A stretch of DNA of 63,924 nucleotides, the filler included, from Lenisia limosa (taxonomy: Eukaryota; Protista; Breviatea), in assembly GCA_001655205.1 (NCBI GenBank). It is 15 parts of 15 records of this genome, joined end to end, with 100 filler letters (N's around TTAATTAATTAA, not from the genome) between each part and the next. Parts side by side here need not be neighbours in the genome. Positions count along the whole stretch, not along the records: positions 9,503 to 20,673 come from LPNZ01008185.1; positions 20,774 to 24,797 come from LPNZ01007021.1; positions 24,898 to 28,313 come from LPNZ01005806.1; positions 28,414 to 29,844 come from LPNZ01003887.1; positions 29,945 to 38,679 come from LPNZ01008829.1; positions 38,780 to 48,311 come from LPNZ01000210.1; positions 48,412 to 49,746 come from LPNZ01006094.1; positions 49,847 to 56,697 come from LPNZ01002408.1; 7 more parts are not named here. One strand, written 5' to 3'. Below, one piece after another: positions 12,601 to 63,924 of this stretch. The notes beneath the pieces were generated by a model. It was not told the origin of the DNA. It ran no database searches and was given only the letters and a program-made list of their open reading frames with translations. The position numbers and the translations under genes are program-made. Within the stretch, counting starts at the first letter, position 1. Every line of letters begins with the position of its first letter.

Positions 12601-15600
12601 GTATTATTCCGCCTACCTTCCACCCATAGCAGCAAGGACAGCAGATAAGGCCAAGGCACCTCCTTGACGGAGGGCAAATTCCTTCTGTTAGGCGTTACGG
12701 GGTTGTTACACTATAATTGGAGCACTTGACATGTCATATTATTAATTCTATATAATTGGAGCACTTGCCCATGTCATATTGATTTAATACAACATAACTT
12801 AGACCCTAGCAACAACACCACTATAGGCCTCTCAGCATACACCACAGAGGAACTCCTTAAGCCGGGCAACGATTTCGGCCTGAGACTCCTGCGACATGGG
12901 CTTGACAAGGGAGGCGAGAGAGGCGGACACTGAGATCTGAAGATCGTAAGGGGTGTCATTCCGGTGCAGGAGAGGCAAAATATCAAATAAACCTGTTTTT
13001 TCCATTCACCCAAAAGCTTATCGAGGGGAATTACCTAGGGTATAATGTCAAAAGTTAACTGTGAATATCAGTGGAATACATCAACACCAATTACAACAAT
13101 GATATGAACAAAATGGTGTTTCATACAAATACATGTGTATGACTTGAACAAAGCACCACAATATAATATAATAACCAATAACCAGTCTTGATTAGTTACG
13201 TAGCATCAGACCTGGACAACTTCTGAGGGGGTGCGGAGGGCAGAAATAAGAAGTTCCAGGGACTGTGCTCTGGAGAGTGAGAGAGGGGGGTACTGTTTTG
13301 AAACTATGGAGAAAGGTGGGGAGAGGGGGGTGAAAAGTACAAGACAGTTGATCCGCATAAAATCCTGGTGAAATATTGCTATATTACAATATCAATGTAC
13401 CACTCGGTATGAAGGAATAAAGAATACTCAGACCTCCCACCTTTGTTCGGAGTCAACAGGCAGCCTGTTGGCTACGTGCCCCATAAGAACGACTCGAAGC
13501 TGCGTTGGTAAAAGGGAATGATGAGTGACGTAAAATTGAACACGCTTCTCCATTTTAATCAACTTTTATTGCTGAATGTGCTCGAAGAAGTTTCTCAACA
13601 ATTACATCCATTAATAGTACAAAATGTATCCTATGTGTACGCTAATCCCCGGAACAGCCTGCCACGACTCACCTGGTGGGTATTGTCACTGCATGAGGTT
13701 GAAGCTTGGTCCACGAGAACCTTCAACTCAGTGATCAAGCCGCTAAGCTGGTAATTTGGGTGGAGCGGATTCTTTTGATTACAAGTGTTCACTGAGGTGT
13801 GTGTTTTAATGAGAAATGTGCCAGTTTAATGTGCTTATGTAGACACAATCAAAAATCTCATCACGAACTCCCTTAGGTTGGAAACAATCTGTGCTAAATA
13901 GTTATTTCCCATCCCCCCCATCCCCCCCTACGCGATCAGCTTCTGCTCGTTGTGGCTCTCCAGGCCAGACCGGCAAAGCTTGTTGGCTGCGGACGTGACC
14001 TTTTGGCTGACGTCAGCAAGGACCTGGGGGGAGAGGGTCAATAGATAGCCAATATAAAGGAACGTGTGGGGGAAGACGTTATTGAACGGCGAAGAAAAAG
14101 ACTATGTTTAACAATTGAGGAAACACACGAGGTGAATTCCAGAGAATTCAGGAGATGTCTGGGGGAGAGGGGGAGGAGAAGGATGGCGAAGAATACTGAA
14201 ATCGAGAGATGCCCCCCCCCCCCCNNNNNNNNNNNNNNNNNNNNNNNNNNNNNNNNNNNNNNNNNNNNNNNNNNNNNNNNNNNNNNNNNNNNNNNNNNNN
14301 NNNNNNNNNNNNNNNNNNNNNNNNNNNNNNNNNNNNNNNNNNNNNNNNNATGAGGGGGACACAGGGCTCAATTGCCGCCAAAAGAGCAAGACGTTGGGGC
14401 TCTGTGTCTGTGCAGGATGAATATGAAGTCCAATATCAAACAATTTAAAGCGAACAGTCCCTCCCCCACCAGGGCACTTCAAAGCGTAGCCAAGAGCGTC
14501 CTTCTTGGCAATAGTGGCCATCTACTGAGTCAGTATCATCATGTCAAATAAGGGAACAGTCTTGATCAATACAGTTTGGGCTTCACTTCGGTTCGAAAAA
14601 GACCGATAAAACATCGATAGTTTAGGATTTTCGAGAAATTCAGTATACAGTAGTAAATCCCCACCTTGTAGAGGTCAACGAAGCGGTCCTTCATGTGATC
14701 GAGAACATTGGGGAATGTAACAGACGTTTCCTTGAGTCCCCTAAATCGTCAGCAGGAATGAACGGACATCATCAGAGCAATATTGAACATTATTCCTGAA
14801 CAAAGTAAAAAAAAACAAGAAAACAAACAGTGCCCAACTCTAACACAGCACCATCACATTAAGCAACAAGAGCCTCAAATCAACCCACTGAGCGAAGGCC
14901 TGGACGGCGACAGAACGCACAAAGGTTGAGGACGACTCCATCAGGGGGAACAATTCGGTCCAGAAATTGTCTTGCACTGAGGTGAAAATGAAAAATTTAT
15001 AAATAAAAAAAGGCACAGAATCAACTCTGTTGGCGAGAAACACATGAGCTTTGAAAACGACAAAACAAACATAGGTCGCTTATGCAGCACCGCATCCAAT
15101 CACTCGTTAAATTGAGGAAATAGTGAGCATAGCAGCTCACCATCATTCAACTACGATATGGAACATTACTTCCACTCCCCATGGAAACTAGATTGTCTCT
15201 CTGCACCCCCTCGCACATTTCCACTCGGGGAGGAGAGCAACAAGAGGGCTGTGATCAGCGTTGGCAATGGACGAGAAGTAGAGGTAGGCAATTGCCGTCT
15301 GGAGGGTGGGGGGAGGTATGAAAAATGGATATTTATGAAAAGCAAACAAAACAAAAACCCAAAATCCACAAGCAGAATTGAGTGGGGTATAAACTGAGTT
15401 CAGAAGCTAGTTATCAATAAAGGCCGTATCTGCATCTAACAAAAATTTGCTTTGAACTGCGCATTACGGGGTTCCATACGGTCCGAAAAAAGACCGGTCA
15501 TATCAAAAAACACAGAGGTTTTTTTCGAGGAATTCATTATTACCTTATGAGAAATGTCGGTGAAGGTTGCACCATCACAACTAGCAAGAGCACTGTGGGC

Positions 15601-18600
15601 AATAGCCCTGGTGTTGGCTGACGTTGAGTGTAAAGCCTCCAAGAATGTGGCTGCAAGCTGGGGGGGGGGGTCACACCCTCGTAATTATCCATTATCTGGT
15701 TACTGAAAAGATGTTGTAATAGGGGTGTATTTACAAGCGTTTCTTCAGAAATATCAATTATTTTGGGCTACCCAGAGGTCCAATAAAAACGATTCAAAAT
15801 GACATAATATTGCAACAACGTGTTGTTTTAAAAAAGACAGGCGATAATGGGGTTCGAACTGACCTTGTGATGGAAAGACATTTGGTTCATCAGCTCGGTG
15901 GCAAGCTCTGAGAGGACCACCTAAAAGATTGAATTAAGCTCTGAGGACCACTTAAAAAAGATTGAATTAAGCTCTGAGAGGACCACCTAAAAGATTGAAT
16001 TAAGCTCTGAGAGGACCACCTAAAAGATGGAATTAAGCTCTGAGAGGACCACCTAAAGGATTGAATTAAGCTCTGAGAGGACCACCTAAAAGATTGAATT
16101 AAAGAAGGCAAAGTGTTGAAACGAGGCTAAAATCAACACCNNNNNNNNNNNNNNNNNNNNNNNNNNNNNNNNNNNNNNNNNNNNNNNNNNNNNNNNNNNN
16201 NNNNNNNNNNNNNNNNNNNNNNNNNNNNNNNNNNNNNNNNNNNNNNNNNNNNNNNNNNNNNNNNNNNNNNNNNNNNNNNNNNNNNNNNNNNNNNNNNNNN
16301 NNNNNNNNNNNNNNNNNNNNNNNNNNNNNNNNNNNNNNNNNNNNNNNNNNNNNNNNNNNNNNNNNNNNNNNNNNNNNNNNNNNNNNNNNNNNNNNNNNNN
16401 NNNNNNNNNNNNNNNNNNNNNNNNNNNNNNNNNNNNNNNNNNNNNNNNNNNNNNNNNNNNNNNNNNNNNNNNNNNNNNNNNNNNNNNNNNNNNNNNNNNN
16501 GTTCTATGAAGGAGGCACGCAGAAAGCTGTGTGCAGAGTTGTAAGATGATTGGCTGAATACAAAGTACACTATAATCCAATATATCTTGTAAGCGTGATG
16601 GTGCTATATGAACCATCAAGCCGGCATACGAGCGATTGGAACGAATGACTGCATCATATAGACTATGTGAGAGATCTGCTCATATGACAGGCTGGTGGTG
16701 GAGATGGCGTGCAGCAGGATGGGCGACACCAAGGCCACAATCTCAGGCGACGCGAGAATCTAAGAAATCACTCACTGTCCTCTGAATGTCGATAGAATGC
16801 TAACTTCAAGATTCAAACTATCAGCCCCTTTGCCAGCAAACTTGAACAGGCAGGTGGCTGAGAGCAGAAGAGAGACGAAGACTCAACTCCTTCGTTTCTA
16901 GTAGGTAAGTAAATATGCTCAGTTCGGTGAAGAGCTGCAACTTATCCACAAGAAATCTTATTATTTTCTATGAATATGTTGGTCTTCACTATCCTTATGA
17001 GGTCAAAATCAGTCAAATAAACCCCGAAAACAAAACAATCCACATGCATCACAGGATCCAGCTCAAACGAGACAATCTTCAACCCACCGGCAAAGCGACC
17101 TGAGTAAGCACCTTCAGAGGTGAGGACTAGGAACAGGGGGGCAATGAGCTCGTAGGCGAATCCAGGGGCAATCCTAAAGGATCAGGAATATCTCTTAATG
17201 GTAGTGTTATTGGTAAAGCAACAATATTTTTTTAATACAGTGACCGGGATAAGTCTTGAGCGATTTTCATTGTGAAATCATCCAGCAATTCGGTTAAGAC
17301 TTCTCCCGGCCACGGTATATTTGCTCTTTATTAAAAAAGAATCTTACCTCTTGTGCACCGATTACAAATCAGTGAAATAAGAACGAAAAGCTATTCCAAA
17401 GCACCCACCTGGTGAAGATTGTTTCAGTCACCTGAGACACGGCTTCGGCGGTAGCATCACAATACGTTTCTGAAGACACAAGAACAGAGCATGACGACAG
17501 GAAGATTGCCAGGGAATGAACGGGGGTAGCGGCCGAGTGGACGGAAATGAGCGAAAGAAGGCGCTTCACCTGAGGGAGTTAGATATCTGCAACTGTACAT
17601 AAAGGAAATCAGTCATTCGAAAAAGGCACATACCACCAGTTGGTACCAACGTAATGTGATAATAATAGAAACGAGTACTCCAGTCAATCAGAAAAATTGT
17701 ATTCTTTTGTACTTACAACCCAACTTCAAAAGAAATCACATTCAACAAACATAACCACAGCCGACCTGTCACAAACATAACCACAGGCGACCTGTAAGAA
17801 AAATAATCATTGCACACCTGTACGGGCTCCACAGTGTCCAAAGCCGCCACCGAAGCAGCAAGCTTGTCGACGAGGATGGTCATGACGGAGTCGCGGGCCG
17901 ACCCTGAGAGGTGGCTCAAGCTGACGTCACCGGTCTGGCCAACTAGCTCGTCGGCGAAGGGGATGGTCTGTGTGTGTGGGGGGAGGGGTGAGATTGGAAA
18001 ATTTATGAAACACATTACCCAAAATCTCTGTTGGCTGACTAAAAAGGTTGATAACAACAACAAAACANNNNNNNNNNNNNNNNNNNNNNNNNNNNNNNNN
18101 NNNNNNNNNNNNNNNNNNNNNNNNNNNNNNNNNNNNNNNNNNNNNNNNNNNNNNNNNNNNNNNNNNNNNNNNNNNNNNNNNNNNNNNNNNNNNNNNNNNN
18201 NNNNNNNNNNCCAAAACCAATTCATTTGGTAACATTTGTGGAAAAAGGGGGGGGGGGTATTGGCGTAAAGATACTGCTCAAGAACAGCATTTCGATTATT
18301 ACATTTGAGAAAACGAGATCACCACCACGCCCCTCCATCCCCTCACCATGCAATCCACGGGTTCCTTGCGGGGGGTCTGGACCGCNNNNNNNNNNNNNNN
18401 NNNNNNNNNNNNNNNNNNNNNNNNNNNNNNNNNNNNNNNNNNNNNNNNNNNNNNNNNNNNNNNNNNNNNNNNNNNNNNNNNNNNNNNNNNNNNNNNNNNN
18501 NNNNNNNNNNNNNNNNNNNNNNNNNNNNNNNNNNNNNNNNNNNNNNNNNNNNNNNNNNNNNNNNNNNNNNNNNNNNNNNNNNNNNNNNNNNNNNNNNNNN

Positions 18601-20590
18601 NTGGCGGCGCGTCGGAGCTTGAAGAGTGCCACTGTCCTGAGGGGTGATGGCAATCTTCCTTATTTGTGCGGAAGTGGGGTATTTAGTTACGGGAAATAAA
18701 ACAAGGGAGTGATCAAAGCCATCCACACCATTATCAGATATACTCTATGATATATAGCTATATATGATATATATATATATATAATACATGTATGTGGGTC
18801 CTCAAAGCTCCGGACACCATTCAAAATTCCCGGACACATCAAAACTCCCGGACAGCTTGAAGTTAATGCCTTGCATAGGACATTGCTAGTGTTTTTTTGA
18901 AAATCTGTTTCGACAGATACAAAGAGAAAAGGTCCTCCTAATGTTCCCTAACTTTTTCAATTTTGAGCAAACGTCAAAAATCCGTGAATTTGGTCTCCCG
19001 GGGGTCCCCCTTTTGCCTTTTCACAGGATTTTTTCTGAATCTTACCCTCTTTTAAGTGTTAAGAAACAAAAATTTGCACCCCTCGGAGTATTTGGTTCCG
19101 TGGTTCCCATTTGCTTTGGCTATGTAATGGTGAATTTTGAGAGAAAACAAAATAGCACTGTCTACAAGGGTAAACTTTCCCGGATAGTTGCCATTTATTC
19201 CTTGAATGTGGCCTTTTATAACGGTTTTTTGCTTGTTTTTGACAGTATTTGGACCATTAACAGATAGCTCAGGGACTTAATTTGGTTTTGACCCGACAAT
19301 ATGTTAAATTGTGGTTTCATGCTTTAATTAAGATTGAGATTACTCTCGAAAACAAAAGGGAAGTAGGGTTTTTGGGTGGTTTATGGTGATTTTGTAGGGG
19401 AAAACTCAAGCTGTCTAGGAGTTTTGATGTGTCCGGGAATTTTGAATGATGTNNNNNNNNNNTATATATCACAAAAGGGCTTCACTTCGGTTCGAAAACC
19501 GAGTGAATTTCTCTATAACTCCTCGAAAACTATCGCTATTTTACTGGTCTTTTTCGAACCGAAGTGAAGCTCACTATATAAAAGATGGATTATATTTTAA
19601 TGCACCCAGTCATTTGCTAATAAAAAACTCTAAAAAGTTCGTATACAATAAAAAACCCTCATTGCGATAGGGTGGAGAGTATTAGGTTCTCAGCATGTTT
19701 ACGAAAACAAATCCACAAGACAAAAACAAAAACAGAATCGCGATATTTCAATATTGTGGAATGAGGCAATTTTTGAGGTAAACCTACTTGTCAGATTCCT
19801 CCCTGATTTTGGGTGCTAAAGTTTCCAGAACCTGAGCCAGTCCCTAAGGAAGTTAGTAAAGGAATGCGAAAAATGCCAAATCACAGATGGGGACACAATG
19901 CACCGGCCGACTTAAGCGCCCCTCATCATTCATCACCCCGGTGATAGCATTCACACCTCCCCCCTCCCCCCCCCACGGTGATAGCGGATGAAGGGTCAAT
20001 GTCAGCAACAATGTTGAGGAAATCGAAAGACGCAATTGTGGTTCCAGGCTGGGAGGGGGGTTAAATTGGAATATTTATGGAAATAAAGAAAAAAGAAGCC
20101 CAAATCGGCTTACAAGTATACAACAAAACAAGGTCAGGTCAGTCCCAAACACACCACTTGAACAGCAATGAGGTTGAAGGCCTTTGACAGGAATGCAATG
20201 TCAGTGATGGGCGCGACTAAAGAAGTCAGAGGAAATGCCTCGCGTTTGTTTGGTAACTTCAGGTTGTAATTCCACAAGACGGTTTTGGTCAAGAATTGCG
20301 GAATCCTTAAATCCCTCCACAAACCGGCACTAAAAATCCCTCTACTATGGAAATACAAAATCCCCCGCCTTCCCATTACAAAATCCACACTACAATCTCA
20401 CCCCCTAGAAAAACTGACCCCCCACTGTTGAAGTGACCCAGGACGGCAGAGGCAGCGATCAAGGCAACAGGCAAGTGTGAGGGGGCAAGACGCGGCATGA
20501 AAGTGTCTACAAGATCGGTTATGTTAGGTAACAAATTTGTCGGGACAAAATCAAGTCTTGGGTTTGTATCTGCGTTTCTGTTACTTTGGT
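9644..20590 (-). CDS. GCN1: eIF2-alpha kinase activator GCN1 (HEAT repeats), partial, many exons
   Basis: Exons match remembered GCN1 segments in order: TPSEVVQ; GAFLCYEALSSSFGRLFEP; LGDSSRNVREAA...LSGHGVKL/VLPTLL...WRARAG/AVSLLALMAHCAPKQLSS; HTIDAPSLS; DSIPEVRTSASRTYGSMVK; GESAFGDLTKWL. Exons above about 16.9 kb are assigned only by strand and continuity. Confidence 0.92.
11770..11844 (-). repeat. Perfect 36-bp tandem duplication spanning a GCN1 5' splice site
   Basis: agactacccccgcaccaagcttgacaccatggccag occurs twice. Confidence 0.95.
14578..14645. mobile_element. MITE family D, truncated copy in a GCN1 intron
   Basis: GGGCTTCACTTCGGTTCGAAAAAG left end; right TIR absent. Confidence 0.75.
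14977..15105 (-). repeat. Intronic repeat family B copy ending at a GCN1 acceptor
   Basis: Sense reading gatgcggtgctgca...gccaacagagttgatt...tttcacctcag, then the exon resumes (V)QDNFWTELFPLME. Confidence 0.8.
15903..16100 (-). repeat. 33-bp x6 tandem array spanning a GCN1 3' splice site
   Basis: Sense unit aattcaatcttttag|gtggtcctctcagagctt; the last unit continues into exon VVLSELATELMNQMSFHHK. Confidence 0.92.
16509..16620 (+). repeat. Dispersed repeat family C. Other copies at about 32092-32300, 37585-37690, 38618-38679, 41868-41935 (minus), 60455-60540
   Basis: Shared core ggaggcacgcagaaagctgtgtg...gagttgtaag...tactataatccaatatctcttataagcgtgatggt. Occurs in both orientations relative to host genes. 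Confidence 0.8.
17968..18067 (-). repeat. Intronic repeat family B copy ending at a GCN1 acceptor
   Basis: gtcagccaacagagattttggg...tttcataaattttccaatctcacccctccccccacacacacag|ACCATC (TIPFADE). Confidence 0.8.
18797..19452. mobile_element. About 650-bp non-autonomous DNA transposon-like element with long TIRs
   Basis: cattcaaaattcccggacacatcaaaactcccggacagcttga (18818-18860) is inverted at 19404-19452. CCGGACA occurs three times in the left arm. No ORF inside. Confidence 0.7.
19477..19572. mobile_element. MITE family D copy
   Basis: GGGCTTCACTTCGGTTCGAAAA...TTTTCGAACCGAAGTGAAGCTC. Confidence 0.9.
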
Positions 20591-20875
20591 CAGACAAAAC
20601 ACACCGACAATGACCAAACTAGGTAAGAAACACGGCCGTACACCCAGGAGCCAACGCAAAAAAAAAAACGGGCNNNNNNNNNNNNNNNNNNNNNNNNNNN
20701 NNNNNNNNNNNNNNNNNTTAATTAATTAANNNNNNNNNNNNNNNNNNNNNNNNNNNNNNNNNNNNNNNNNNNNATAGCACCCTGGCGAATTACGACATCA
20801 CCCTTCGTCATGATCACGTGGAAACTGTAGCCCACTAGTTCATGGATCTGGAAATAAATGTTATTAATGTAAGAA

Positions 20876-22990
20876 TTAGGAAATAATGAAAGAAGTATAC
20901 CTGGGAGTCCACAAGACCAAGATCTGTAAGAGCCTTGAAATATCCTCCGGTGAGCGGAAATCTGAAACTGTCATCGATTTGAATTTTATATAATTACATC
21001 TACAGATACAACAATATCCTCCAGCAAACCTCTGCAGAATTTGTCGAGTAGCATCGCTCAATCCCTCTACTGGTGGTACGCCTACATCATTACAATCCCC
21101 ATCGAACATCTCCACCGCAATATACACATGAAAATGTCTATGCATTGATTTGAATAGTATAATATTCCCACCTCGACTCTGATTGCCAACTACCGAACCC
21201 CCAGTTCTAAAAAGTCAGAATGGCGTGTGTTATATTAAAAAAAAAGTCCAGTGAACTGAAAAGATGCACTAATTGATGCTTTTTGAAGAAAAAGATATCA
21301 TAATAGAGATAATGTAGAATGTAGATCCTACCCTGGTCGAGGTGTTGTGCTGGTTTTCCTATCAACATGAACAGGACTGCCCCTTTGCATGGCTTGTGTC
21401 TTTCTAAAAAGGATGAGATATCCTTCTTCTTGAGAAACGACAAAGCAGATCCATTTAGCATAGAAAAAAGTGGAGAGTGTCACGAGGTATTTTTGCCTAC
21501 ATTCTTGACCTTGATGGGGGCCGTGGATTTCGAGGAGATGATGGGGATGGGGAAGTTTCTAAGTTCGATGAGTAAATGATGAACAAAAGGTAGTCTGAGA
21601 ACTTGATAGTTTTCGTAGTTAACAATTCAAACGTATACGACATATCAAGAGCACTATCTCATTTTACACCCCTTGGGCTTCACTTCGGTTCGAAAAAAGA
21701 CTGCATTTCTTGATATATCCTCGAAAACTATCGATATTTTATCGGTATTTTTCGAACCGAAGTGAAGCCCTATTCACCCCTCTCTCCAACGGTTGAGAGT
21801 GGTAAGACGCGTTTGAGTTGGATGCGCCCCAATTGGAGCCTCCTCAATAGCGGGTGCAATGTCACGGACGGGCCTTAGGGATAAAATAAGGGAGTAAGAA
21901 TGTTGATAGGTCAGATAGATGATAAAACACCTCTCCTCCCCATGCAATATTCCCCACTTGAATTCAGGTGCAGGCCGCCCTCTCGAGTCCGATGCGGGCG
22001 TCACCATTATGCTCTCCTTCGACTGCAACAATCGGACAATCTCCGGCTCTTCCACGTCTTCTTCTTGGGGGGGGGGGGGNNNNNNNNNNNNNNNNNNNNN
22101 NNNNNNNNNNNNNNNNNNNNNNNNNNNNNNNNNNNNNNNNNNNNNNNNNNNNNNNNNNNNNNNNNNNNNNNGTGACAACACGGTTGATAACAAAACAAAC
22201 AAAGCCCAAGCCAGCCGATTCTGCAGCACCGCATCCCAGTGATTTATGTCAGCTCAACAAAGTTCATTAGAGCCTAGTCCACTTCATTTTTAGTGGTATG
22301 CTGGGCGAGAATACTGTAGTAGAGGGTGATGGTGGCGAATGGTTGGACAAAAAAATAAACATCAAACAAAACCGACAAAAACCTCGACCAACCCTCTACA
22401 AAACCTCGACTCGGCGGCCTGCTGACGATGGGCCCTGGGCGATTGGGGGTGACGATACTGTTTCGTCGCGAACTGGGCGCTGGGGGGGGGNNNNNNNNNN
22501 NNNNNNNNNNNNNNNNNNNNNNNNNNNNNNNNNNNNNNNNNNNNNNNNNNNNNNNNNNNNNNNNNNNNNNNNNNNNNNNNNNNNNNNNATCTGTTCAGAC
22601 ATTGCATCCTTCTGAAACTGGGTATCATATTAATCATGAACATCATACTCAAATACAAAAACACCAACCTGATTTCTTAGGTTGTGCGAAAGAAGGAACC
22701 TAAATCATCAATGTTACCCCATTGAAAAGGTACTGGTTTGTGAATTGAGAGGGTTACTGTGCCTGAAACAAAGTATTGTGTTTTTGTAGCCTAAGCGTAC
22801 AGTATGGTTTGGGTACAGGAATGAAAACAGTATTATATTTTTGTAGCGTAAAACGTACAGTATGGTCAGGGTGCAGGCGATTGGTGATAGCCATCCGCTT
22901 GGAGGCTACTTGTGATTCAAAACTGTCGTCATTCATAGTCAACGGACGGGCTATGGGGGGAGGGGGAGCATTGGGGAAGTATAATGAAAG
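20876..22990 (-). CDS. Unidentified multi-exon gene, Pro-rich middle region, partial
   Basis: Protein-like AG/GT-bounded frames: EEDVEEPEIVRLLQSKESIMVTPASDSRGRPAPEFK; KSMTVSDFRSPEDISRLLQILVLWTPR; MNDDSFESQVASKRMAITNRLHPD. Confidence 0.5.
21675..21770. mobile_element. MITE family D, best-preserved copy (96 bp)
   Basis: Perfect 23-bp TIR GGGCTTCACTTCGGTTCGAAAAA; right flank TA. Confidence 0.92.
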
Positions 22991-25199: not shown

Positions 25200-27800
25200 A
25201 CCCCAAATGACAATATCTACACCAGCCTATGCAATCACCTTTCCAATTTAGCGAAACTATTTCAATCATAGAGGATAGGCAGGGATTATTGTAATTTATT
25301 GACAAATTCGTTTCAACAATTGAAGGGGAACATCCTGTTACAACAACTCTTTAGATATCTCAGAACAAGAGGTTAAGGCTTTCCAGAGAGAATCGATTGA
25401 TATCAAATTGTGAGAATTGATTTCCAAACAACTGATTTGCATGTTGCCATACCCCCCCACCTGGACTGAGTCCAGTAGTGTGGCCTGGTCTGCACCGTCC
25501 TTGTCATTTTCGAGTTCATTTGGCTGTTGGGCAGTCCTGGAGAATATGAGACAATAAAAAGGGGATGTAGGATCTGGCCGAAGCTGGCTCTATAGTTAAA
25601 CCATAACAGGGTTGAAAAACTTATCATATCATATCATATCATATCATTTCATATGTGGCATCGCTTCCCTCCTTCACGATGCCCCCCCCCCCCCNNNNNN
25701 NNNNNNNNNNNNNNNNNNNNNNNNNNNNNNNNNNNNNNNNNNNNNNNNNNNNNNNNNNNNNNNNNNNNNNNNNNNNNNNNNNNNNNNNNNNNNNNNNNNN
25801 NNNNNNNNNNNNNNNNNNNNNNNNNNNNNNNNNNNNNNNNNNNNNNNNTGGGGGGGGGGGGTAAAACGAAGGAAATTTCGATGAACAATATTGGTGTAAG
25901 GTACTAATCATGAATACTATACTAGCGGTACTACCTGACATACCTGGGGGCACACATGGACAATTTCGACATCTCTCGTCAGCCTCGCAACCCTAAATGT
26001 CAAAGGAGGAACCGACTAAGTAACTCTAAAGGTACCACATAAGCCATGGCTTGTCATTAGTGGGGTGCCAGCGATCCTTAAATCTCTGAAAAACAAAAAA
26101 AAACAACAATGAGCAAAATATCAATTTGTAACAATGACAAAGGGGGAAATAACCATGTTGATGTCAGTCTACCACAGTAAACCCCCCACTCAAGAGCGGT
26201 TGTAATTGCCGCTGTTTTACCAGTGCAGGGTCCCCCGGAAATGCAGATAGGCATGTTGGAAAGTGTCTGAAGCAGAATGCTGGAAATGGCCTGGGGGCGG
26301 GGGTAAATTGGAAAATTGCTGAAACAAAACAAAAAATCCCCAGAATTAACTCTGTTAGCTTGCAACACAAGGGTTGAGAACAAGTAAACAAACAAAGCCC
26401 AGGCCAGTCAATTCTGCAGTAGGGGTAACAACAGGTAATCTAACAAAACAAAACAAAAAACTCAGAAGGGTTGAGGGGGGAGGGGATCAACTCTGTTGGC
26501 TCAATATTTGAGAAATTATCCAGTCAGGATGTCATATTATTTGAGGTTGAAAGGAAAATGTCAAAGCTGTCCACACGCGAGGTATTGGATGAGTAGAACG
26601 ATATTGATCCCAACCCAGCCCACAGCTGTCCATTTTGGGGAGTCAACATACTCCAAGGCCACACAGGCTTCCTTAATTTGCTGCGTGTCTACGGGGTAAC
26701 GGAGGATAATTGCCTTTTACTGTCCCGAATATTTAATTCTAATTCCCTTATTCAGTAGATGACTCGTTAATATCTCCAAATTCAGATATTTGAAACGAGT
26801 CCCACTGAGAACGTCTTCCTTTCCTGCCTGCTTACATGGGGTGGATTGTGTAGTCTCTGTTGAGTCGGGAGTCTACAGGGATAACATGATGAACATGTGT
26901 GATGATCAGAATTGTCAAGAATTGACAATAATAGGAAAAAATCGACAAGGATAAGAATACATGAAATAGCAACAGGTTATCAGATCATCAAAAGTGACAT
27001 CACTAAAGCAAGGCAACGGAAAGCAATTGGGCTTAAAAACTCACCTCAGCTGAAGGTGGTAGCGGGAGATGAGTCTGAATAACTTGCCTAATATGGTAAG
27101 TGGGCCAAATATCATTCTATTGAGACCGCAGTGAAGGTCAATTATCACCCAGCGTACTTATACACTGCAACGTCATCCTTATGAAGAGACGGGAGGATCT
27201 CAAGATCGAACGCGGTGCGGACAGACTCCATACAAGCCCGGGCCGGGAGGAGCGTCATTCTTTTGCTTACAAGCGGAGCACGGGGGACAACCCTGCGACA
27301 CGGAGAGGTGAAATACGTGCATGTTTTGGGGGAATTCTTGGGTGACGATTGTGGTATGAGAGACTATTGAGAAATAAATAACAGGAAAGTCAGATCCTCC
27401 CACTCCCTATCGTATCTAACAGTGCACACGCCTAATACCTCCCCCCTCACAAAGGACTATATGAGAAAAGAGAGTCACAAGCGGCGGCGGCAGCAATAAT
27501 GGAAGATGCCAGGATTGGCGGCTCCGCGGCTCCGGCAAGGATAAGATGGGCCTGGGGAGGGTGGGGGAGTAAAATTAGAAAACTGAGGGAATAAAGAAAC
27601 CAATCAACTCTGTTGACTGTTTAGTGTAAAGGTGTAATTGATAGGAACATATTGGAAAATCCAAAAATCGATTTGGTAGTGGTAAAAGAAGGCTTGGTGA
27701 CTAAATAAATGTCTGAAAGCACCACAAAAATACCGAGATAAGTGGTAGGTAAGACGGTGCCGGCGCTGTAAGGGGCCTAAAAGTCTCAATTAAGGACTTG
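25200..27800 (-). CDS. Unidentified multi-exon gene containing a Walker A P-loop (NTPase, possibly AAA+), partial
   Basis: Exon 26290-26183 reads AISSILLQTLSNMPICISGGPCTGKTAAITTALEW, a hydrophobic strand followed by GxxxxGKT. Other protein-like exons lie on the same strand. Confidence 0.55.
26291..26425 (-). repeat. Intronic repeat family B copy ending at the acceptor of the P-loop exon
   Basis: ctgcagaattgactggcctgggctttg...gctaacagagttaatt...aattttccaatttacccccgccccag|GCCATT. Confidence 0.8.
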
Positions 27801-32655: not shown

Positions 32656-32864
32656 GGTCTCAGCTATGTTTCGTCAATTCTCTTGTTTTCACCCCGCCAG
32701 GGTCGCGGCCGTGCCCAGCCATCTGTGGGTAAAGTTCAGCAACGACGGCTGGTTTTGGGCCACTCCAAAGGTCAGCGCACTCCAAACGCACTCCCCGTAG
32801 CATTAGCCTGCTTTTGTTTTTGTGGCATTAGCCTGCTTTTGTTTTGTGTTTTCTTTTTCTACTT

Positions 32865-33004
32865 TTAGCGTTGGTTGTTCAGTTTGTTATTGCTTTTTTT
32901 TTGTTTTGTTTTCTGTTTGTTTGGAGTTTCAGATTGTCGGGTTCATGAATAGTACCTTTATATCCAATATTCTTCAGAGAAATTTTCTTCGTTTTACTCC
33001 CCAG
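32865..33004 (+). repeat. Intronic repeat family A copy ending in ttttactccccAG. Other copies at about 2215-2251, 18250-18290 (-), 25858-25918 (-), 31885-31907, 33605-33745, 60742-60774 (-), 61433-61480
   Basis: Shared core tttgtttggagtttcagattattcggttcgtgattagtacctttatgccaatattcttcatcgaaatttccttcgttttactcccc. Confidence 0.8.
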
Positions 33005-33831
33005 ATATACCCCGGCCTTTCCAATAGCGATACTTCCCCAGAGCGAGNNNNNNNNNNNNNNNNNNNNNNNNNNNNNNNNNNNNNNNNNNNNNNNNNNNNN
33101 NNNNNNNNNNNNNNNNNNNNNNNNNNNNNNNNNNNNNNNNNNNNNNNTTTTATTTAACGAAATGTGTTTACTTTTTTCTGTGAATCCTAATGGAGGTTCT
33201 TCAATTTTCCATATTTATATGGAGTTTTTGTTTTATATATATCACTATTGCTCGAAAATCTCTCACCCAAACAGAAGATTTGAGTCTATTTCTGGAGCGT
33301 CAGAAGGCTCAACTTTCCTTATTGTCAATGTTCACTTGACTGTACTGAGGGGGTGCTTGTTTGTTGATAATTTACTTCGAGAATGACGTGTTCCTTCAAT
33401 TTTTGGTTTTCTGTTTTCTTGCTTTTTTATTTCCATGATTTTCTCCTCATTTCCATATTTACGCCCGGGCTTTGCTTGTTTTTGTTGTCAGCCAACAGAG
33501 TTGATTTTGGCTTTTTAGTTTCATAAATTTTCGTGGTGGGACTCTTCAAAGGCAGGCTCGGGCTTGTTTTTGTTTTTGTGTTTTTGTCTTCTGGCTTTTA
33601 TCTAGTTTTAGCGCTGGTTGCTCATGTTTGTTATTGCTTGTTTTTTGTTTGTTAGTTTGTTTGGAGTGTCAGCTTATTCGGTTCGTGATTAGTACCTTTA
33701 TGCCAATATTCTTCATCGAATTTTCTTTCATTTTACTCTCCCCCCCCCCCCNNNNNNNNNNNNNNNNNNNNNNNNNNNNNNNNNNNNNNNNNNNNNNNNN
33801 NNNNNNNNNNNNNNNNNNNNNNNNNNNNNNN

Positions 33832-35581
33832 NCCCTCCTCATCCATATGGCGGTTTCAGAGATATCCTCCAAGTTCCCCAGTGACCATGTTCTTTGGCTT
33901 GGGGATATGAACGGTTTGAGGATTATGGCGAACAAAACAAACAAGGATTTTTGGCTCGTTTTGTGACAAAGCTGCATCATTATTCTCAACCCTAGCCATC
34001 AACATAGTGTATGATAGTCATAAATGTTGAGCCGATAGCTTTTGTAACAATATTAAATGTTTGACAGTATTTAGTGCAAAATTGACTGATTTAAATTGTC
34101 TTTCAACCCTTATGCAATTACATATGTTGGTAGTTTGTATCGTGACATAGTATAGAGTCACGGTCCTCTTAGGTGTACTGAGGACCGTGACTCTTTATTA
34201 TTGTATACTATGTCACGATACAAACCACCAACATTTCACGTATCTTTATTACAAATGTAATTGCATAAGGGTTGTTTGTATCGTGACATAGTATACGTTC
34301 GCGCATTATCACCAGCGCTCCCCCACACCACGCCAATTGAAGCCGTCACGTGGCCGCCAGTTCTCTCGGCATCACATCACGGATTATCCTGGTTGGTTGG
34401 GGGAGGTACTTTTATCCCCTTTTGGTCGGGAAGCTTATGTCATCTCTTGACGCTTATAAAACAATTATATGGTTCAGTTCGGTATTCTATATTTGATGGA
34501 ACTTAAAAACAGGACCTCTTCATTTACATAAAATAACACATGATATCCCTCCCCTTGCTGATTTGGGGTTTTTTGTGTTTCATAAATTGTCCAATTTTAC
34601 CTCGTGTGTTGTCAGCCAACAGAGTTGATTTGAATTTTTTTTTACCCCCCCCCCCTCTAACAACGAAGGTATCGCCCAGAGCCCTTCGGAATGGTAGATA
34701 TTTTTGACGTTGCTATTGACCCAAAAACCAGGACAAAAGCCAAGAAGAAGGGCTACAATGTTGGCTGGAATGTGCTCATAATTATCATTTTTCTTCTTTT
34801 CTTTGTAGTAAAGTCTCTATTGAAACTAAAATTCTTGATCCAGCGGTTGACTACACAAAGAAACATTCTTTTTTTTTTCTCCATCTTGCTTATCTTCACT
34901 TCCATTCACCTACCCCCTTTGGGTTTTTTTTTGTTTAATACATTTTTCCAATTTTACTCCACCTCCCCCCTCCCGAAGGTACCAGATCATATCGGACCAA
35001 CTTACAGCTTTGTTGGATGGACCAAGTCCTCCCTCCTGCGAACTTGTGTCAAGTGCTGGCAAATCAAGTGCTCATGCTGGGTGTGTGGGGGCAGGCAAAG
35101 TGATTAAATAACAATTAAAGCTTCTCTACGCTCCCCCAAAAGACTTAATGTCTCGATAAATGCTCAAATAATATATCGATATTTTATAGTACAGATCTTT
35201 TTTGGACCAAATTCCTTTCAACCCCAACAGAAATTGTCTGCTTTTATTCCATTGTCTTTTTATTGGAGGGGAAGCTGGGATATATGATCGTTTAATAACT
35301 TATTTTGTTTGGTGTTTCCTTCTCATTTCCGCATATTCCAGCCTTGTTCACGAGGGAGTGTCAAGAGAAGAATCGACTACCTGTTCGTGCCTAGCACCTT
35401 CCTGAAACCAACGTGGAATCCAGCCCCAAATGTAGGCCTTCATTTCACACTTTACTGTTGTCGGTGTCGAGATCGATATTGGACATTAGAGCAATCAATC
35501 TTCCATGCTCCTTTTCTCTCAAATCACGCAATAACCACAATCTGGCAAAAAATGTCCTCTTTATATCTTGGCATCACGTGA
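33832..35581 (+). CDS. Exonuclease/endonuclease/phosphatase (EEP, DNase I-like) family protein, C-terminal half
   Basis: Exons splice in frame to HVLWLGDMN|ALPHTT...GLSW|YRPEPFGMVDIF...|VPDHIGPTYSF...|...KRRIDYLFV, giving the GDxN, GxxD, PTY and RIDY motifs in order. The final SDH-equivalent exon is not resolved. Confidence 0.75.
34104..34298. repeat. Composite palindrome: MITE-like unit (34203-34298) with TIR TATACTATGTCACGATACAAAC, an inverted partial copy to its left, and a 14-bp hairpin between them
   Basis: Arms 34125-34154 and 34204-34233 pair with one mismatch. Inner arms 34155-34168 and 34180-34193 pair perfectly. A third TIR copy lies at about 34276-34297. Confidence 0.8.
34552..34668 (+). 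repeat. Intronic repeat family B copy (plus strand) ending at an acceptor of the plus-strand EEP gene
   Basis: cctcgtgtgttgtcagccaacagagttgatttg...ccccctctaacaacgaag|GTATCGC. Confidence 0.8.
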
Positions 35582-38500: not shown

Positions 38501-38812
38501 TACATTTTTGATTAAAAACCTCCACGTATTATATCTCTTTTAATGGTACTAGAGTATCATCATATGATATGTATTGATATCATAACACATTATATACTGG
38601 GGAGGCACGCAGAAAGCTGTGTGTACAGATTTGTAACAAATAATTGGGTGAACTAGTATTATACTATAATCCACTATCTNNNNNNNNNNNNNNNNNNNNN
38701 NNNNNNNNNNNNNNNNNNNNNNNTTAATTAATTAANNNNNNNNNNNNNNNNNNNNNNNNNNNNNNNNNNNNNNNNNNNNTTAGTTTAGGACCGTTATTAA
38801 AAGTTTAATAAT

Positions 38813-43014: not shown

Positions 43015-43313
43015 CTTGTATTAATCTAAATCTTATCCCAGTTTCGGGGAAGGAAGAAATGAATGTTGTTTAACAACTTACTTATTGGTTGTGTTTTTTC
43101 AAGAAGTTTATTTATTTATTTATAGATTTATATAGACAATAGAGCAAGGCAGGTAGGAAAAGGTTGGGAAAAGGCAAGCAAGCGCAAAAATGGCAAAAAA
43201 GAAGTTGTTAACGTCGCGTCAACGCCAAGTATAAAAGTATGAATTTCTTTGTGTTTCTCTTGCTTGTCTCATCCAATTCTCATCGGCATTGATAGATAAT
43301 TAAATAAAAAAAA
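43015..43313. promoter_or_regulatory. Likely bidirectional promoter (RBMX2 and NDC80)
   Basis: About 300 bp between divergent ATGs; contains CGCGTCA and TATAAAA. Confidence 0.6.
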
Positions 43314-49267: not shown

Positions 49268-51285
49268 TAAATACCCCCCTCCTCCTTAATCATACAATAT
49301 CGATATTGGCGTGATTAGCTTGCGCACGTGCCATTGCCGACGCAAAAGCCGCAGATAAATCGTCGTCTGGAGAGGAGTAAAATAGGAAATTTATGAAACA
49401 AAACAGGCCAAAACAACTCTATTGGCAAGAAACACACGAGGGCTAAAACAAAAAAAGGTGTGTGTGTGGGGGTATATAAAGGTAAATGTGATTCATTGGA
49501 AGATATAGTTGTGATTATGCGGTTATATATGATAATGTGGTATTAGTGGTCAACTGTTTATGATTACTATATGGTAATAGTGGTTATTACAATATCGTAC
49601 TACAATCATTATGGTTACATCATACATGTTTATGTTTTGTACTCAAATGTATTTATACTTTTTGAAAAATCTTCGAAAAATATCGAGTATAGTGGAAGGG
49701 TATCAATAGTTGAAAAGTAAGTGGGGGGGAGGGAGGGGGGGGGGGGNNNNNNNNNNNNNNNNNNNNNNNNNNNNNNNNNNNNNNNNNNNNTTAATTAATT
49801 AANNNNNNNNNNNNNNNNNNNNNNNNNNNNNNNNNNNNNNNNNNNNTAGTGTGGTGGAGACATACTAGCACCCGGATTGGCCATATTTTCGCCCATGACA
49901 ACGTCTCCGACTGTATGTTAAACAACGTTAATGTCTGTCAAAATTAGAACCATTTGAGATCCAATAAGAATCATATTTAACACTAAAATCGAGACCAATA
50001 ATTAGTGCTTAGTGCACTCATAAAATATAAAGGATTATCGAATATTATATGGTCTTTTTTCGGATGCTTATTATCCTAGCATCAATATTGAAAAACAACA
50101 ACAACAAAAAAAAAACGGATTGAATTTTAGATGTAGTCCAAATCTCAAAGTCTCCAACAATCCAACCGGTGTTCATTTTAATCTCCCGGAAAATTATTCC
50201 CAAATTAATCCGACAAAACCCTGTTAAAAGATCCGACGAATATAACAACAACACACAAAACCACCGCGGAGAAGAAACAAATAACAACAACACACAAAAC
50301 CACCGCGGAGACAGAAACAAAAGTTTGAGAATTTGTTAAACAGCGGCAATTCTTATGATACAATTGTAAATTATTTGGATAAATATTGAGGTAATGATGT
50401 GCAATTTACCAACATAATTGAAAACTCCCCCATTCTTCATACAAGCCGAAGCAGTCACCGACAATTAATGCGAAAAGAATGAAAAATAAGGAAAGTAACG
50501 TCATACCATTGAGGGGCAACAAAACCAAAGTTCCCATCAAAAAAACCCTCCAAGATATAATAAAACAATAATATGGAGTGCTAATAGCGAAACACGTTGG
50601 TGACACGTAAGAAAAGGTTCTGCAAAACACAATGAAGCCGAAGGTTATTGGCAAGATATGAATTTAAGAATGGGGAAGAGAAAAGATATTGGAAGCTGAA
50701 AAATGTAATAACTGGCCTATTAATGGGTCAAATTTTAGCGCAGGTGGCGATTTCTACAGAGAAACAGCGCAATGGATAGGGGATTCGGGAGGATAATAAG
50801 ATCATGGAGAATTTTTCGGTAAGTGGAAAACAATCCCATTTTGAAACAATATAACAAACAAGCATACTAAGACGGCCATAGGCGGCGGTGAAGACCAGCA
50901 GCAACAAGAGAAGTACTGATTGCTTCTTCATCTTAATACGTTTTGACTCTTTTCTCAATTAAATGACTTCATTCATTGTCATTTTAGTAATTATTAAGAG
51001 ATACACGTATATTTACAGAGAACAGGACTTGGTCAGTGCAAAAAGAATATCCAAGTTAGCTTAGACAGCATTTGCAGCTATGTCATCTAATCTGCCTTAT
51101 AATTATATAATGTATAGTTTCAAGTCGGTAAAAACCAAAATGCAAAAAGAGTAGAATACAGACCAAGGTTTCTGATTGCACCCCCATGACATTTTGGTAT
51201 TTCAGTAAATTGTTTCTAAATTTCCGTCTTTTGAAGCACTAACTCACTCCTTACAACTACATCAAAACTATTATATAATCAAAAA

Positions 51286-59340: not shown

Positions 59341-59567
59341 ATATGAGATTTAGTTGTTTTTTTTAAAAAACAATAGAGGTGAAAAATAAAAAAAAAACGG
59401 TTGTATCTGGCCGAAGCAGTCCACANNNNNNNNNNNNNNNNNNNNNNNNNNNNNNNNNNNNNNNNNNNNTTAATTAATTAANNNNNNNNNNNNNNNNNNN
59501 NNNNNNNNNNNNNNNNNNNNNNNNNAACGGGGTATGCGCGAAAAGACCAACAATATACCAACATCAA

Positions 59568-59712
59568 TGTCATGCACAAGAAGATAGAACCATATTAGTA
59601 TCATGCACAGGAAGATAGACCCATATTAGTGTCAGGCACAAAAGATAGACCCATATTAGTGTCATGCACAGGAAGATAGACCCACATTAGTGTTATGGAC
59701 AAGAAGATGGAC
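59568..59712 (-). repeat. About 31-bp x4 tandem array spanning a PRP16 5' splice site
   Basis: Plus-strand unit gaagatagacccatattagtgtcatgcacag; the terminal unit is the exon end ...LLVHNTN|gtgggt. Confidence 0.9.
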
Positions 59713-61235
59713 TTTAGCCTCATCATCATCATCGAAGTCGGCGTCGTTGGATGCATCGTACATGGTACTGCAATGTTAGTATCGTACAAAGGGTGGACAA
59801 TACATCAGACTACATGTTAATACCCCCCCCCCTCACCCGGCCTGTCGCAGCTGGTTTTGCTCCCAGATGGCGTTCTCTCTGAGACTCTGGCTCTTGTAGC
59901 GGTTGAGATAACGTTCACGCACCGTATCCTACGGGTCAGGAATTATGGGGGGAGAGAAAAAGCCAAAAGCAACTCTGTTGGCTGACAACACACGAGGGTT
60001 AATGACAGCAAAACAACAAAGCCCAGGCNNNNNNNNNNNNNNNNNNNNNNNNNNNNNNNNACTATACTAGATACTACAATATAATTAGGTCTTCATGCAA
60101 TGATGTTACAAAAATCCGAAGTGAGACATAATGTAACGAGAACCCTATTTCAGACCCTTTATTTTCTCATTTTGTCAATCAATTTCCTCAAAAAATTAAT
60201 TTCACTGAGCACTGTATAAGAGCCAATACCTCCCCCACCTGCTGCTCCTCCTTCTTCTTGGCGTAGTCGCCAGCGTACATGCTGTTGTTGGTGGCGGCAT
60301 CACCTTCCTCCTGGTCGTACCATTCTCGGTCGAGATCCTTATCATCTTCCTCCTAGAGCGGGGTAAACTTGGAACATCTTGATATCAACCCTGTTGGCTG
60401 ATAACACACGAGGGCTGAGAACAACGAAACACACAAGGCCCAGTGGGGGTGATTGGGTGTTTATGTACTATAATATAATCCAATGTCTCTTATCAGCGTG
60501 ATTTTGTGGACGGCTTCGGCCAGACCATATTTTATTCCTCATCTTCCTCCAAGAGCAGGTTGGGTGAATAAAAACGCTATATTTGGGTACCTTTCTGTAT
60601 GAGTAGAAAACAGCAGCATCCTATTACCCCCAATAATATCTAGCTCCACCGCCTCACGTCGTAACGTCTGCTTTCTCCCTTGCGGGGGGTCGACTTGTTC
60701 CAGCTGTTCGACTGGTGGGTAAGGCGGTGTTGGAGGGGCGAGGGGAGTAAAACGAAGGAAATTTCGATGAAGAANNNNNNNNNNNNNNNNNNNNNNNNNN
60801 NNNNNNNNNNNNNNNNNNACACATGAGCAAAACTAGGGGACCGATCCCCAAGAACATTGTTTATGGTACGCAGGGCTTCACTCGGTCCGATAAAATATCG
60901 ATATTTATCGAGGATTTATTGAGAAATCCAGCTTTTTTTGGGACGTGGGAGTACTAATGGTCCCAATGTAATATTTTTTATCCGTATATTTCAATGTATT
61001 TTCTCGCCATCAAGATCCCTTGGATACAAACGTACTGATGAGAGTCGAGGAAAATGGAAAATGTTATGAAACAAAAATAAAACTCCAAAAAAACTCTGTT
61101 GGCTTCACGTACAAGGGTTAAAAACAACAAAACAAACTAAGCCAGTCGCTTCTGCAACACCGCATCCCATCACTCAGGCGTACTTTGTAAGAGGGGGTGA
61201 AGTCGGGCTTATCTTCAACTTCTCGGCGTGGCGTC
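59686..61235 (-). CDS. DHX38: Pre-mRNA splicing DEAH helicase PRP16/DHX38, N-terminal region, partial
   Basis: FTPSYK/SNSWN; EEDDKDLDREWYDQEEG; RENAIWEQNQLRQAG; DFDDDDEAKVHLLVHN. These match remembered human TPSYKYNEW, ADRDWY, ERWETNRMLTSG, DFEEDNAAKVHLMVHN. Confidence 0.88.
59929..60028 (-). repeat. Intronic repeat family B copy ending at a PRP16 acceptor; another copy at 60353-60447
   Basis: ccctcgtgtgttgtcagccaacagagttgc...cctgacccgtag|GAT, and ccctcgtgtgttatcagccaacagggttgat...ccccgctctag|GAG. Confidence 0.8.
60873..60945. mobile_element. MITE family D, degenerate copy in a PRP16 intron
   Basis: GGGCTTCACTCGGTCCGA left end plus family-D internal sequence. Confidence 0.65.
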
Positions 61236-61500
61236 CTGGAGGAAAATGAGGTAAAGTGTAGGGGAGAAACCCTGGTGAATGTAAAAGTCCACGATTAATT
61301 CCAAAAAAAAATCGTTCATGCCCTATCCTGGTNNNNNNNNNNNNNNNNNNNNNNNNNNNNNNNNNNNNNNNNNNNNTTAATTAATTAANNNNNNNNNNNN
61401 NNNNNNNNNNNNNNNNNNNNNNNNNNNNNNNNTTATTTAGTCGTGATTAGTGCCTTTACGCCAATATTCTTCATCGAACTATCATGCCCCCCAATCATAC

Positions 61501-61993: not shown

Positions 61994-63924
61994 CTTGCTT
62001 CAATTCAAGGGAAAAGACCAAAACGAAACAACGAAACCGAATTAACTCCCACTATCCGGGTCAACTAATTAAAAAAACCTTGAGTAATTGAGCTCGTAAC
62101 TCTTACTCTTAAAAAAGAGCTTGAATTTCAAAAGAGGCCACTAACATTTGATTACTTTTGATTATACAGGAACCCACCAGGAAATATGTCCCCCCCGCCA
62201 TTATATCTCTTTAAAGCTGAAATCCTTCACAAGTTGCACACAGTACACAGTATACCTTTATTGGCTGCTTGCTTGATTATCGAGAAAAAAAAGCAAAACA
62301 AAACAACAATTCTGCTGCAACATCTCGACATCTCGAGAACACTGGAAAGAAAAGAGTTCCACTAAGAAGCCACCAACAAAGCACCCTCGCACCCTCACTT
62401 CCCCCCTGGTTAGAGATATATGAATATGAATATTGAGTGAATATCAATACTTTGCTTTCAATTTCATCATGTTCTGTGGTTCTGTATTCCCTTTTCTTGT
62501 TTATACTTTTTGCAGTTTTATGTCGGAGTAGAATAAGAAGGAACAGCTGGAGGAGATGAAAGCCTTACCATGTTTCGTTGCCGTCTTCATGGCATTGCTT
62601 TTCCTTGTCCATGGCCAAATGTAAGGATGTCCTTTCATTAATCTCACTTTGGCCTTTTCAAGTGACAAATCACGATTCTTCTTTCTCTTCCGCTAATCTG
62701 AACGTGGATGGGTTGAAACTTGGGGATTCAGGGAATACTTTAGTATATTTATTCCTTCAAGGTCAAAAACCAGATAAGACTCCCCCCCATCCCAGAGCCC
62801 TGAACTTTGTNNNNNNNNNNNNNNNNNNNNNNNNNNNNNNNNNNNNNNNNNNNNTTAATTAATTAANNNNNNNNNNNNNNNNNNNNNNNNNNNNNNNNNN
62901 NNNNNNNNNNGGACAACACACGAGGATTGATAAGCCCAGGCCAGTCGCTTCTGCAAAATTTCCAAGTAATTTTAAAAAAACAACTGTATATCGTATCCTA
63001 TACTATTAGGAGTCAGAAAATGCTCGCATCATGCCAAACCATTACCCAAAATAGCCAAATTACCAAGCATAGCCAAAATACCTTGAGTTGTTGAACGGGC
63101 AGCGACTGGGAAACCTGCATGGGCGGCGGCGGGACTAGGGGCTGGCTTGAAGGGGTGGAGTTAATGCTGGATTGTTAGAAAGGGCTTTTCGCGGGTTTAT
63201 CGAGGATTTATCAGCTGACACGTCCCCATTATCGTCAGCATCACATCCAAAAGGTTCTAAAAGCCGGGAAAATATTGATATTTTTTGGCAAGTACTCCCA
63301 CAAACACTGCTTGGCTGATACTTTTCGGATAGGCGTCAGGAGCAATTACGAAGGTCGATGAATCCGCGCTACTACTTCGTGAGTTTTTGAAAAAGACAAA
63401 TATACATCCTGGGAAAGAAGAAAAAATACATCATATTATTGCACAAAATTAATAGAGGGCGTGAGTTTAGTTTACTTAAAAGAACAAGAAAATAACTGTT
63501 GTCAAGAGGAAAGGAGAGAAGTCCCTCATCAAACCCCCCCCCCCAACCTGCTAAATAAGGACGCTGGAGGCGGAGGGGGTGAGGGGGTTGAAGACACCTT
63601 GTGCATGCCCTAAACGGTTACAAAAAATAGAAATCTGGTTCGTCGAAGAATAAAAAAACACCGATTGTTATTTGTGTGATATATCATATACGCTAGAAGG
63701 GAGCGATTGATTTTTATTTTTTTATTTAAAAGAAGTATAAATTTTAATTGTTTTTATCTGCCTCCTCCTGAGGAGGCAGATAAAATAAGCTAAAAATAGT
63801 AATTTTATTTTATTAACCGCTCACTTAAAATATTTACTTATTAAAAGAAACAAAAAAAAAATCAATCGCGCCATCAGCAATATCCCCCCTCCCTCCAGGG
63901 GGCCAAGGAGTTAAAGGGGGGAGG

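Follow-up and report, generated by a model that had tools for sequence, protein, structure and literature searches.

Introners are defined by sequence similarity near both ends of the intron, a definition that aims to exclude secondary insertions (PMC9860276, PMC12130899), and in Micromonas 6,112 IE-A copies form whole introns compared with 463 remnants that have neither splice site left (PMC3879977). Here we describe family B, an introner-like repeat in a 63,924-nucleotide stretch of the genome of the breviate Lenisia limosa (assembly GCA_001655205.1; 15 parts of 15 records joined end to end, hereafter the window). The 5' edge of this repeat is sharp, and its tail consists of a C-run and AG; its copies are biased towards the sense orientation and lie at the acceptors of introns that are unrelated to each other in their 5' parts, one such acceptor being seen to be spliced. 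The original prediction held that these introns, or their 3' halves, descend from one mobile family. One mobile family does supply these intron ends, so that the claim stands for the 3' halves; it mostly fails for whole introns, since the 5' parts are unrelated in most copies, and creation of the intron by B is unlikely for most copies.

The repeat is about 150 bases long, with a pairwise likeness of 77-89% (six longer copies, 15 pairs), and ends in TTTAC, a C-run and AG, which resembles the splice acceptor of this genome; its 5' end lies approximately 15 bases beyond the consensus proposed earlier. A profile built on the 14 copies listed in the original prediction recovered 14/14, a circular result for those copies, while shuffled sequence reached at most 7.2 bits, and the family and its coordinates are confirmed. 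For a leave-one-out comparison, 18 copies were used (the 14 listed, of which 34552 was treated as two, together with 34919, 4895 and 2049): 16 scored 13.8-72.9 bits, and the remaining two, 15299 and 2049, scored 9.7 and 8.1 bits, respectively, against shuffle maxima of 1.4-9.7 bits (20 shuffles). The 18 copies are spread over at least six genes of the window. The claim that there was no recent burst agrees with the 77-89% likeness of the window copies, the genomic contigs described below being too short for dating of subfamilies.

Two sequencing runs of one study, both used as contigs, were compared with the window: X1, a polyA RNA run, and X2, an unlabelled run that behaves like DNA and is possibly the source of the assembly. 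Exons outside RNA support were predicted by a small gene model, the seed exons of which had been checked by hand. The window (eukaryotic, 38% GC, N count 4967) contains 14 joiners between its parts, each of 100 bases (44 N, a 12-base stop word and 44 N; for example 9403-9502). Gene models seem to run on over some joiners, where the order of the parts is uncertain, and true gaps often adjoin runs of G or C, by which intron ends are concealed. The copies of B are:

14977..15106, minus strand: almost full-length copy, acceptor AG of GCN1 intron 15216-14977, with 110 non-B bases on its 5' side; frame continuous with an RNA-confirmed exon
15299..15368, minus strand: B 3' part, acceptor of GCN1 intron 15543-15299; RNA join, profile score weak by itself (9.7 bits)
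17968..18067, minus strand: copy at an acceptor, gap on the 5' side (gene model, profile)
20049..20144, minus strand: diverged copy covering 96 of the 109 bases of predicted intron 20157-20049; whole-intron candidate
22172..22239, minus strand: B 5' half entering a gap, with a C-run and predicted acceptor 22064 on the far side (gene model, profile)
26291..26419, minus strand: acceptor of predicted intron 26623-26291; weak 20-base fragment at 26486-26505
27552..27619, minus strand: B 3' part, predicted acceptor (gene model, profile)
33463..33532, plus strand: interior copy directly after TTTAC and followed by a family E copy; no acceptor (profile)
34557..34656, plus strand: two B pieces head to tail, 12 bases short of acceptor 34668; host branch motif retained downstream
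34918..34978, plus strand: B 3' part, predicted acceptor; not in the original prediction (15.8 bits, leave-one-out)
4889..4941, plus strand: B tail entering a gap ahead of the next exon; not in the original prediction (13.8 bits, leave-one-out)
2049..2140, minus strand: possible reversed copy, borderline in score (8.1 bits, shuffle range), at the donor of a plus-strand gene
49367..49447, minus strand: acceptor predicted in an unnamed gene, with a C-tract on its upstream side (profile)
59946..60028, minus strand: copy 17 bases short of acceptor 59929; host branch motif retained downstream
60353..60443, minus strand: copy at an acceptor with a D' copy just before it; an 18-base duplication flanks the D'-B pair
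61035..61183, minus strand: full-length copy from donor GT to AG, with TAC and another GT next; both ends carry a direct repeat of 6 bases
62911..62957, minus strand: B 5' part entering a scaffold joiner (profile)

The 14 listed copies all have the orientation of the host gene (p = 1.2e-4), as claimed, and inclusion of the added copies gives 17/18 (p 1.4e-4), the sole possible exception being 2049-2140, the score of which falls in the shuffle range. None of the 18 copies lies outside predicted introns. The copy end is the acceptor AG in eight of the 14 listed copies (14977, 15299, 17968, 20049, 26291, 27552, 49367 and 60353), and for one intron splicing at the B acceptor is seen in an RNA contig that connects 15544 with 15298. 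Two further copies (34552 and 59929) stop 12 and 17 bases short of the acceptor, and three (22173, 62911 and 4895) enter gaps. The claim that the C-rich end in most cases runs into the acceptor AG is largely right, with two exceptions: 33445, which is interior, and 61035, which starts at the predicted donor of its intron. All eight gap-free introns with B have the copy end at most 20 bases from the acceptor; the corresponding chance of 7e-7 excludes the contrary copies 33445 and 61035, which lie in gapped introns, and includes donor 34391, which was hand-chosen.

Intron statistics are based on 63 author-selected gap-free introns, 53 of them repeat-free; seven of the 63 carry B. The share of B in its gap-free host introns is 28-54% in seven of eight and 88% in 20157-20049, and the non-B 5' parts measure 103-214 bases in the same proportion of introns and 13 bases in the eighth (20049); for most copies the range is 54-214 bases. 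These 5' parts are unrelated among 11 introns (55 pairs, best score 22 vs a shuffled 99th percentile of 23.5). The B 5' end is absent in 13 of the 16 copies with a visible left flank, while the tail is mostly retained. CCCC occurs within 30 bases to the left of 8/16 copies vs 7.8% of intron interiors (p ~1e-5; the motif was picked after inspection of the flanks, and one of the eight cases is exonic). In the 63 gap-free introns the distance from branch motif to intron end is mostly 9-11 bases, and it is almost constant in the 53 repeat-free ones; downstream of copies 34552 and 59929 the host has kept a branch motif and an AG, spaced as in other introns. The D'-B pair at 60353 is flanked by a duplication that takes in the acceptor and 11 exon bases, and in the upstream copy (~60539-60556) AG has changed to TG. 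This duplication of 18 bases (17 as scored) is the longest of 13 tested, the control maximum being 13, although splice sites in the window commonly show short duplications and it need not be a target duplication. The leftover C-tracts, the retained branch motifs and the 60353 duplication suggest that the acceptors predate B.

Several tandem duplications, all short, extend across splice sites (15890-16120, 11770-11845, 35578-35660 and 59546-59712), including a 33-base unit at 15890-16120 in which an AG-GT junction is repeated about six times.

In X2, the interval 60950-61332 was matched by 1304 contigs, with a summed depth of up to 234,000 vs ~25 for single-copy DNA. This depth is inflated by overlapping contigs, and we therefore give the genome-wide copy number of B only as hundreds to thousands, which is the likely range. 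The 5' edge is sharp: contigs end at 61175 (n = 105), 61174 (n = 23), 61182 (n = 21) and 61183 (n = 35), so that, among the matches listed, at least 184 contigs end inside 10 bases. TACG at this edge is matched through by 56 contigs, and 35 of those also match the G beyond it. On the 3' side 24 contigs go on, and their consensus, read along the B strand, is a C-run followed by AG (agreement 0.68). At the 5' edge the loose ends resemble intron interiors (37% T) in being rich in T when read along that strand, which suggests that the sense bias holds across the genome. Copies joined head to tail occur both in the window (34557/34600) and in X2, and such joints could be explained by intron circles (PMC10996645). 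An assembly artefact was ruled out, X2 contigs being identical to the window over 14582-15932, 17239-18067 and 19543-20673, with the proviso that X2 is possibly the source of the assembly. Neither a 21-base B motif compared with JGI metagenome contigs nor one of 17 bases compared with viral contigs gave a match.

With a probability of about one half, we favour the reading that B entered pre-existing acceptors, probably by being copied from an RNA template with C-rich tracts as priming sites, and that selection likely eliminated most of the reversed copies. In this scheme, the C-tail of a B RNA would pair with a nicked G-rich DNA strand in the interval from branch point to AG; B would then be copied from its 3' end by a borrowed reverse transcriptase, which would often halt early; and the new B tail would become the acceptor of the host intron. 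At G-rich donors the same reaction would give reversed, A-rich copies, which would probably be purged. One-sided 5' loss, head-to-tail copies, tails common to several families and flanking C-tracts fit such C-tail-primed copying. Traits of SINEs and non-LTR elements, namely 3' anchoring, a simple tail and 5' truncation, are all found in B. No Rfam family, those of tRNA, 7SL, 5S RNA and snoRNA included, reached its gathering score in the window, and no Pol III B-box was seen by eye in B. A candidate for a variable-length duplication is seen once, at 60353, none elsewhere exceeding control, and the copies are old.

Two further families count in favour of this reading, since both are C-tailed, sense at acceptors and reversed near donors. 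Family E is ~220 bases long and ends in TTTTAC and a C-run as in B; four of its five sense copies lie at or towards acceptors and one is cut by a gap. Family D read backwards (D') likewise has a C-run tail; its sense copies end 5-8 bases short of AG at 16504 and 41939, and the reversed ones at 32092, 32150 and 37564 are close to donors (the host strand at 37564, 38597 and 41799 is the author's reading). The copies of E and D' are:

32800..33004, plus strand: family E, C-tailed, at an acceptor (profile)
2181-2251, 25850-25922, 33548-33751 and 60733-60774: family E, other sense copies
61441..61484, plus strand: family E, reversed relative to its minus-strand DRG GTPase host; 30.6 bits and not a seed, 16 bases from donor 61500, with an adjoining G-run
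16504..16622, minus strand: D' covering nearly all of predicted GCN1 intron 16629-16504; whole-intron candidate
32092-32289, 37564-37686, 38597-38679, 41799-41931 and 60446-60543: D', other copies

The original prediction had also stated that families C and D show no bias; the strands are indeed mixed in both, but D is C-tailed and couples strand to position. Family C is an ordinary miniature inverted-repeat transposable element (MITE) present on both strands, and C and D occur also in stretches without a predicted gene. Two elements were also observed, one with inverted ends at 18790-19450 (X2 depth 14,000-20,000, no gene predicted there) and a small inverted-repeat element with TA flanks at 17235-17320 in a GCN1 intron, where X2 depth is high.

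Several observations weigh against the copying of B into acceptors. A fixed-length target-site duplication is not a general feature, 12 B-only flank pairs being no better than cross-pair controls; no LINE or reverse transcriptase partner was seen in the window; and the reversed D' copy at 38597 is interior. X2 depth is highest at the 5' end and not at the 3' end, for a query copy that is diverged in its 3' half, and the donor-like GTACG at the 5' edge, where 35 contigs stop at 61183, fits an intron-shaped unit. The mean exon length of 85 bases in GCN1 indicates that the lineage probably gained many introns somehow. Among the 53 repeat-free introns, G-runs of at least 4 near the donor (19/53) outnumber C-runs near the acceptor (9/53), and targeting at the DNA level alone would thus give more reversed copies than the one weak case; unless it is linked to splicing, the sense bias of B consequently requires that A-rich copies in reverse be selected against. 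Donors in these 53 introns are frequently GT followed by a G-run, often then GTA, and could be reversed inserts reduced to the tail, could offer alternative donors or could act as splicing enhancers. A transposon with the G-rich donor as one arm and the C-rich acceptor as the other was considered and dropped, as the G and C contents of the two ends are uncorrelated (rho 0.18, p 0.2).

A link to splicing is central to an alternative that we regard as unlikely but worth serious attention, in which B is a unit running from GT to AG that is spliced out and re-inserted in sense into transcribed DNA or pre-mRNA; inserts at acceptors would merge with the host intron, the old AG and the B 5' part being lost later, and inserts in exons would become new introns. 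The 17/18 sense copies and the sense-only introners of Micromonas, some of them nested or merged (PMC3879977), accord with it, as do the intron that is 88% B, the X2 contigs matching through TACG and its G, and one RNA contig with exon-like letters just before the B 5' part (61170; 30 letters, author's reading). Copy 61035-61183 runs exactly from donor GT to AG, which is followed by TAC and a second GT, and both splice paths are in frame, one of them with a 3-base exon; the gene model, by contrast, favours the far acceptor 60712 (7.0) over 61035 (3.6) and scores the second donor at 0.3, and the RNA is too sparse to cover the junction that follows exon 61235-61184. A separate loss of 25-100 bases would moreover be required in 13/16 copies, upstream of full-length 5' ends the consensus is rich in T, unlike exon, and the clustering at acceptors and the reversed E and D' copies at donors are left unexplained. 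B may have created introns at two copies, 20049-20157 and, with the possible 3-base exon, 61035-61183. As to the traits that define introners, similar copies are present in unrelated genes, the orientation in genes is sense and host sequence is spliced out in one B intron, whereas similarity to both intron boundaries (~ten intronic bases) is not found for B, 20049 coming closest with 13 bases and 61035 showing it only under use of the 3-base exon.

Rather doubtful is the broader proposal that B, E and D' are all intron-shaped RNAs that are spliced out and copied back into acceptors, rewriting the 3' splice signals in a large fraction of introns genome-wide (seven of the 63 gap-free ones carry B) and also yielding new introns or micro-exons. 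If this is true, the insertion of such RNAs at full length beside donors or in exons would help to explain the ~12 introns per kb in GCN1.

We consider it improbable that B represents a miniature DNA transposon, its terminal repeats imperfect (CTGG/CCAG) and its preferred target duplication of TACG type, that was retained by selection where it rebuilt an acceptor. The same 6 bases stand at both ends of 61035, the 5' edge is sharp genome-wide, and there is a resemblance to the dinoflagellate (Symbiodinium) elements that supply an acceptor (10.1101/2020.10.14.339549). The direct repeat is confined to 61035, however, and TACG is absent after the other acceptor copies, the loss is one-sided, and the real MITE of the window, family C, is strand-neutral. 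Terminal inverted repeats and short duplications at the intron ends, which the original prediction had proposed to look for, gave little: six copies fold like shuffles (z -1.07 to 0.83), 11 aligned copies share no consensus base pair, the ends have a loose 9/13 resemblance only, by eye, and flank repeats are not above controls save at 60353.

Helitrons end in a 3' hairpin and CTRR and insert between A and T; a Helitron was rejected for B, which has no conserved hairpin and is followed by variable bases after AG.

Similarly improbable is the alternative named in the original prediction, random insertion with selection alone leaving sense copies at acceptors. In its favour, interior sense copies would bring a competing acceptor, and reversed copies are 34-52% A, with GGTA or GGTG in most and AATAAA-like words in some. 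Intergenic and interior reversed copies would nevertheless be expected to survive, yet all 18 copies of B lie in predicted introns, while C and D are present also where no gene is predicted; neither the lack of interior reversed copies in B nor the C-tracts enriched at the left junction are explained; in mammals, furthermore, elements are depleted near acceptors and acceptor-bearing Alus near exons (PMC3088655). Repair of breaks at G or C runs from the C-rich end of another intron, with no element-encoded mobility, accommodates copies that are 3'-anchored, variable in length and free of regular duplications in a window where gaps and short duplications often coincide with G/C runs and splice sites, but is very improbable because only three families and not arbitrary introns were copied and because the at least 184 contigs ending at one 5' edge point to a defined unit.

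Among the hosts, GCN1 (9100-17967, minus strand) was identified by a match to PDB 7nrc (E 3e-5), with RNA joints at three introns; its 27 exons average 85 bases, and ~11.7 introns per kb of coding sequence is very high. The gene that we take to be PRP16 was named from family motifs, without a tool match, and the acceptor of its exon at 61236 is RNA-confirmed. An exon of the P-loop host gave weak AAA matches, and the EEP gene, which carries the name given to it earlier, had no Pfam match. Searches with single short exons found no orthologues of GCN1 or PRP16. For the DRG intron with the reversed E copy, the position was broken in 0/80 related loci, most of which are transcripts or intron-free, with a handful containing introns; in four loci (L015, L035, L040 and L044) introns lie at positions other than those of the DRG gene of the window. 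An EF1B-gamma exon was 100% identical to one transcript-derived protein, and all other matches were at most 71%, which indicates an organism with no close relative among the matches. Two genes, presumably U1-70K-like (39602-40742, plus strand) and RBMX2-like (41950-43020, minus strand) from their motifs, have short introns (~40-130 bases) and no B copies, next to neighbours with long introns. An open frame at 56798-57808 (minus strand), on a 1-kb piece between two joiners, matches protein-primed DNA polymerase B (PF03175, E 1.5e-19) and is a candidate for Polinton-like, viral or plasmid origin.

Mobile elements usually shun acceptors or make whole introns, and a family that becomes the acceptor would be a third route by which splice signals are reshaped. 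Introner pipelines that demand similarity at both ends would miss elements of this type, and with likely thousands of copies one genome can address both the RNA-based spread of introns and the origin of the strand bias in targeting or in selection. No description of acceptor-targeted repeats was found in the literature searched, which mostly did not cover subscription papers, and three short B motifs were not found in the supplements of both introner surveys, the long files of which were perhaps seen in part.

Compared with the introners of these surveys, B is likewise short, non-coding, multi-copy, genic, sense, spliced and equipped with splice signals, but published introners are similar at both ends and most B copies at only one (PMC9860276, PMC12130899). 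The Micromonas elements resemble B in being sense-only and intron-shaped, with no clear secondary structure and with some copies merged with or inside other introns; whole-intron copies are the rule there, whereas in B the rule is partial copies that keep and use the acceptor (PMC3879977). In the introner-like elements of dinoflagellates the AG comes from the element end, as in B, and the direct repeat of 61035 touches the donor, but inverted repeats and a duplication of fixed length (4 or 8 bases), both present in those elements, are generally lacking in B (10.1101/2020.10.14.339549). With SINEs such as Alu, B shares a simple 3' tail, 5' loss, head-to-tail copies, one long duplication and an acceptor in one orientation, while its tail is C-rich and not A-rich and it has no tRNA or 7SL match. 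In the orientation that bears the acceptor, B is concentrated at acceptors, whereas Alu is depleted near exons (PMC3088655).

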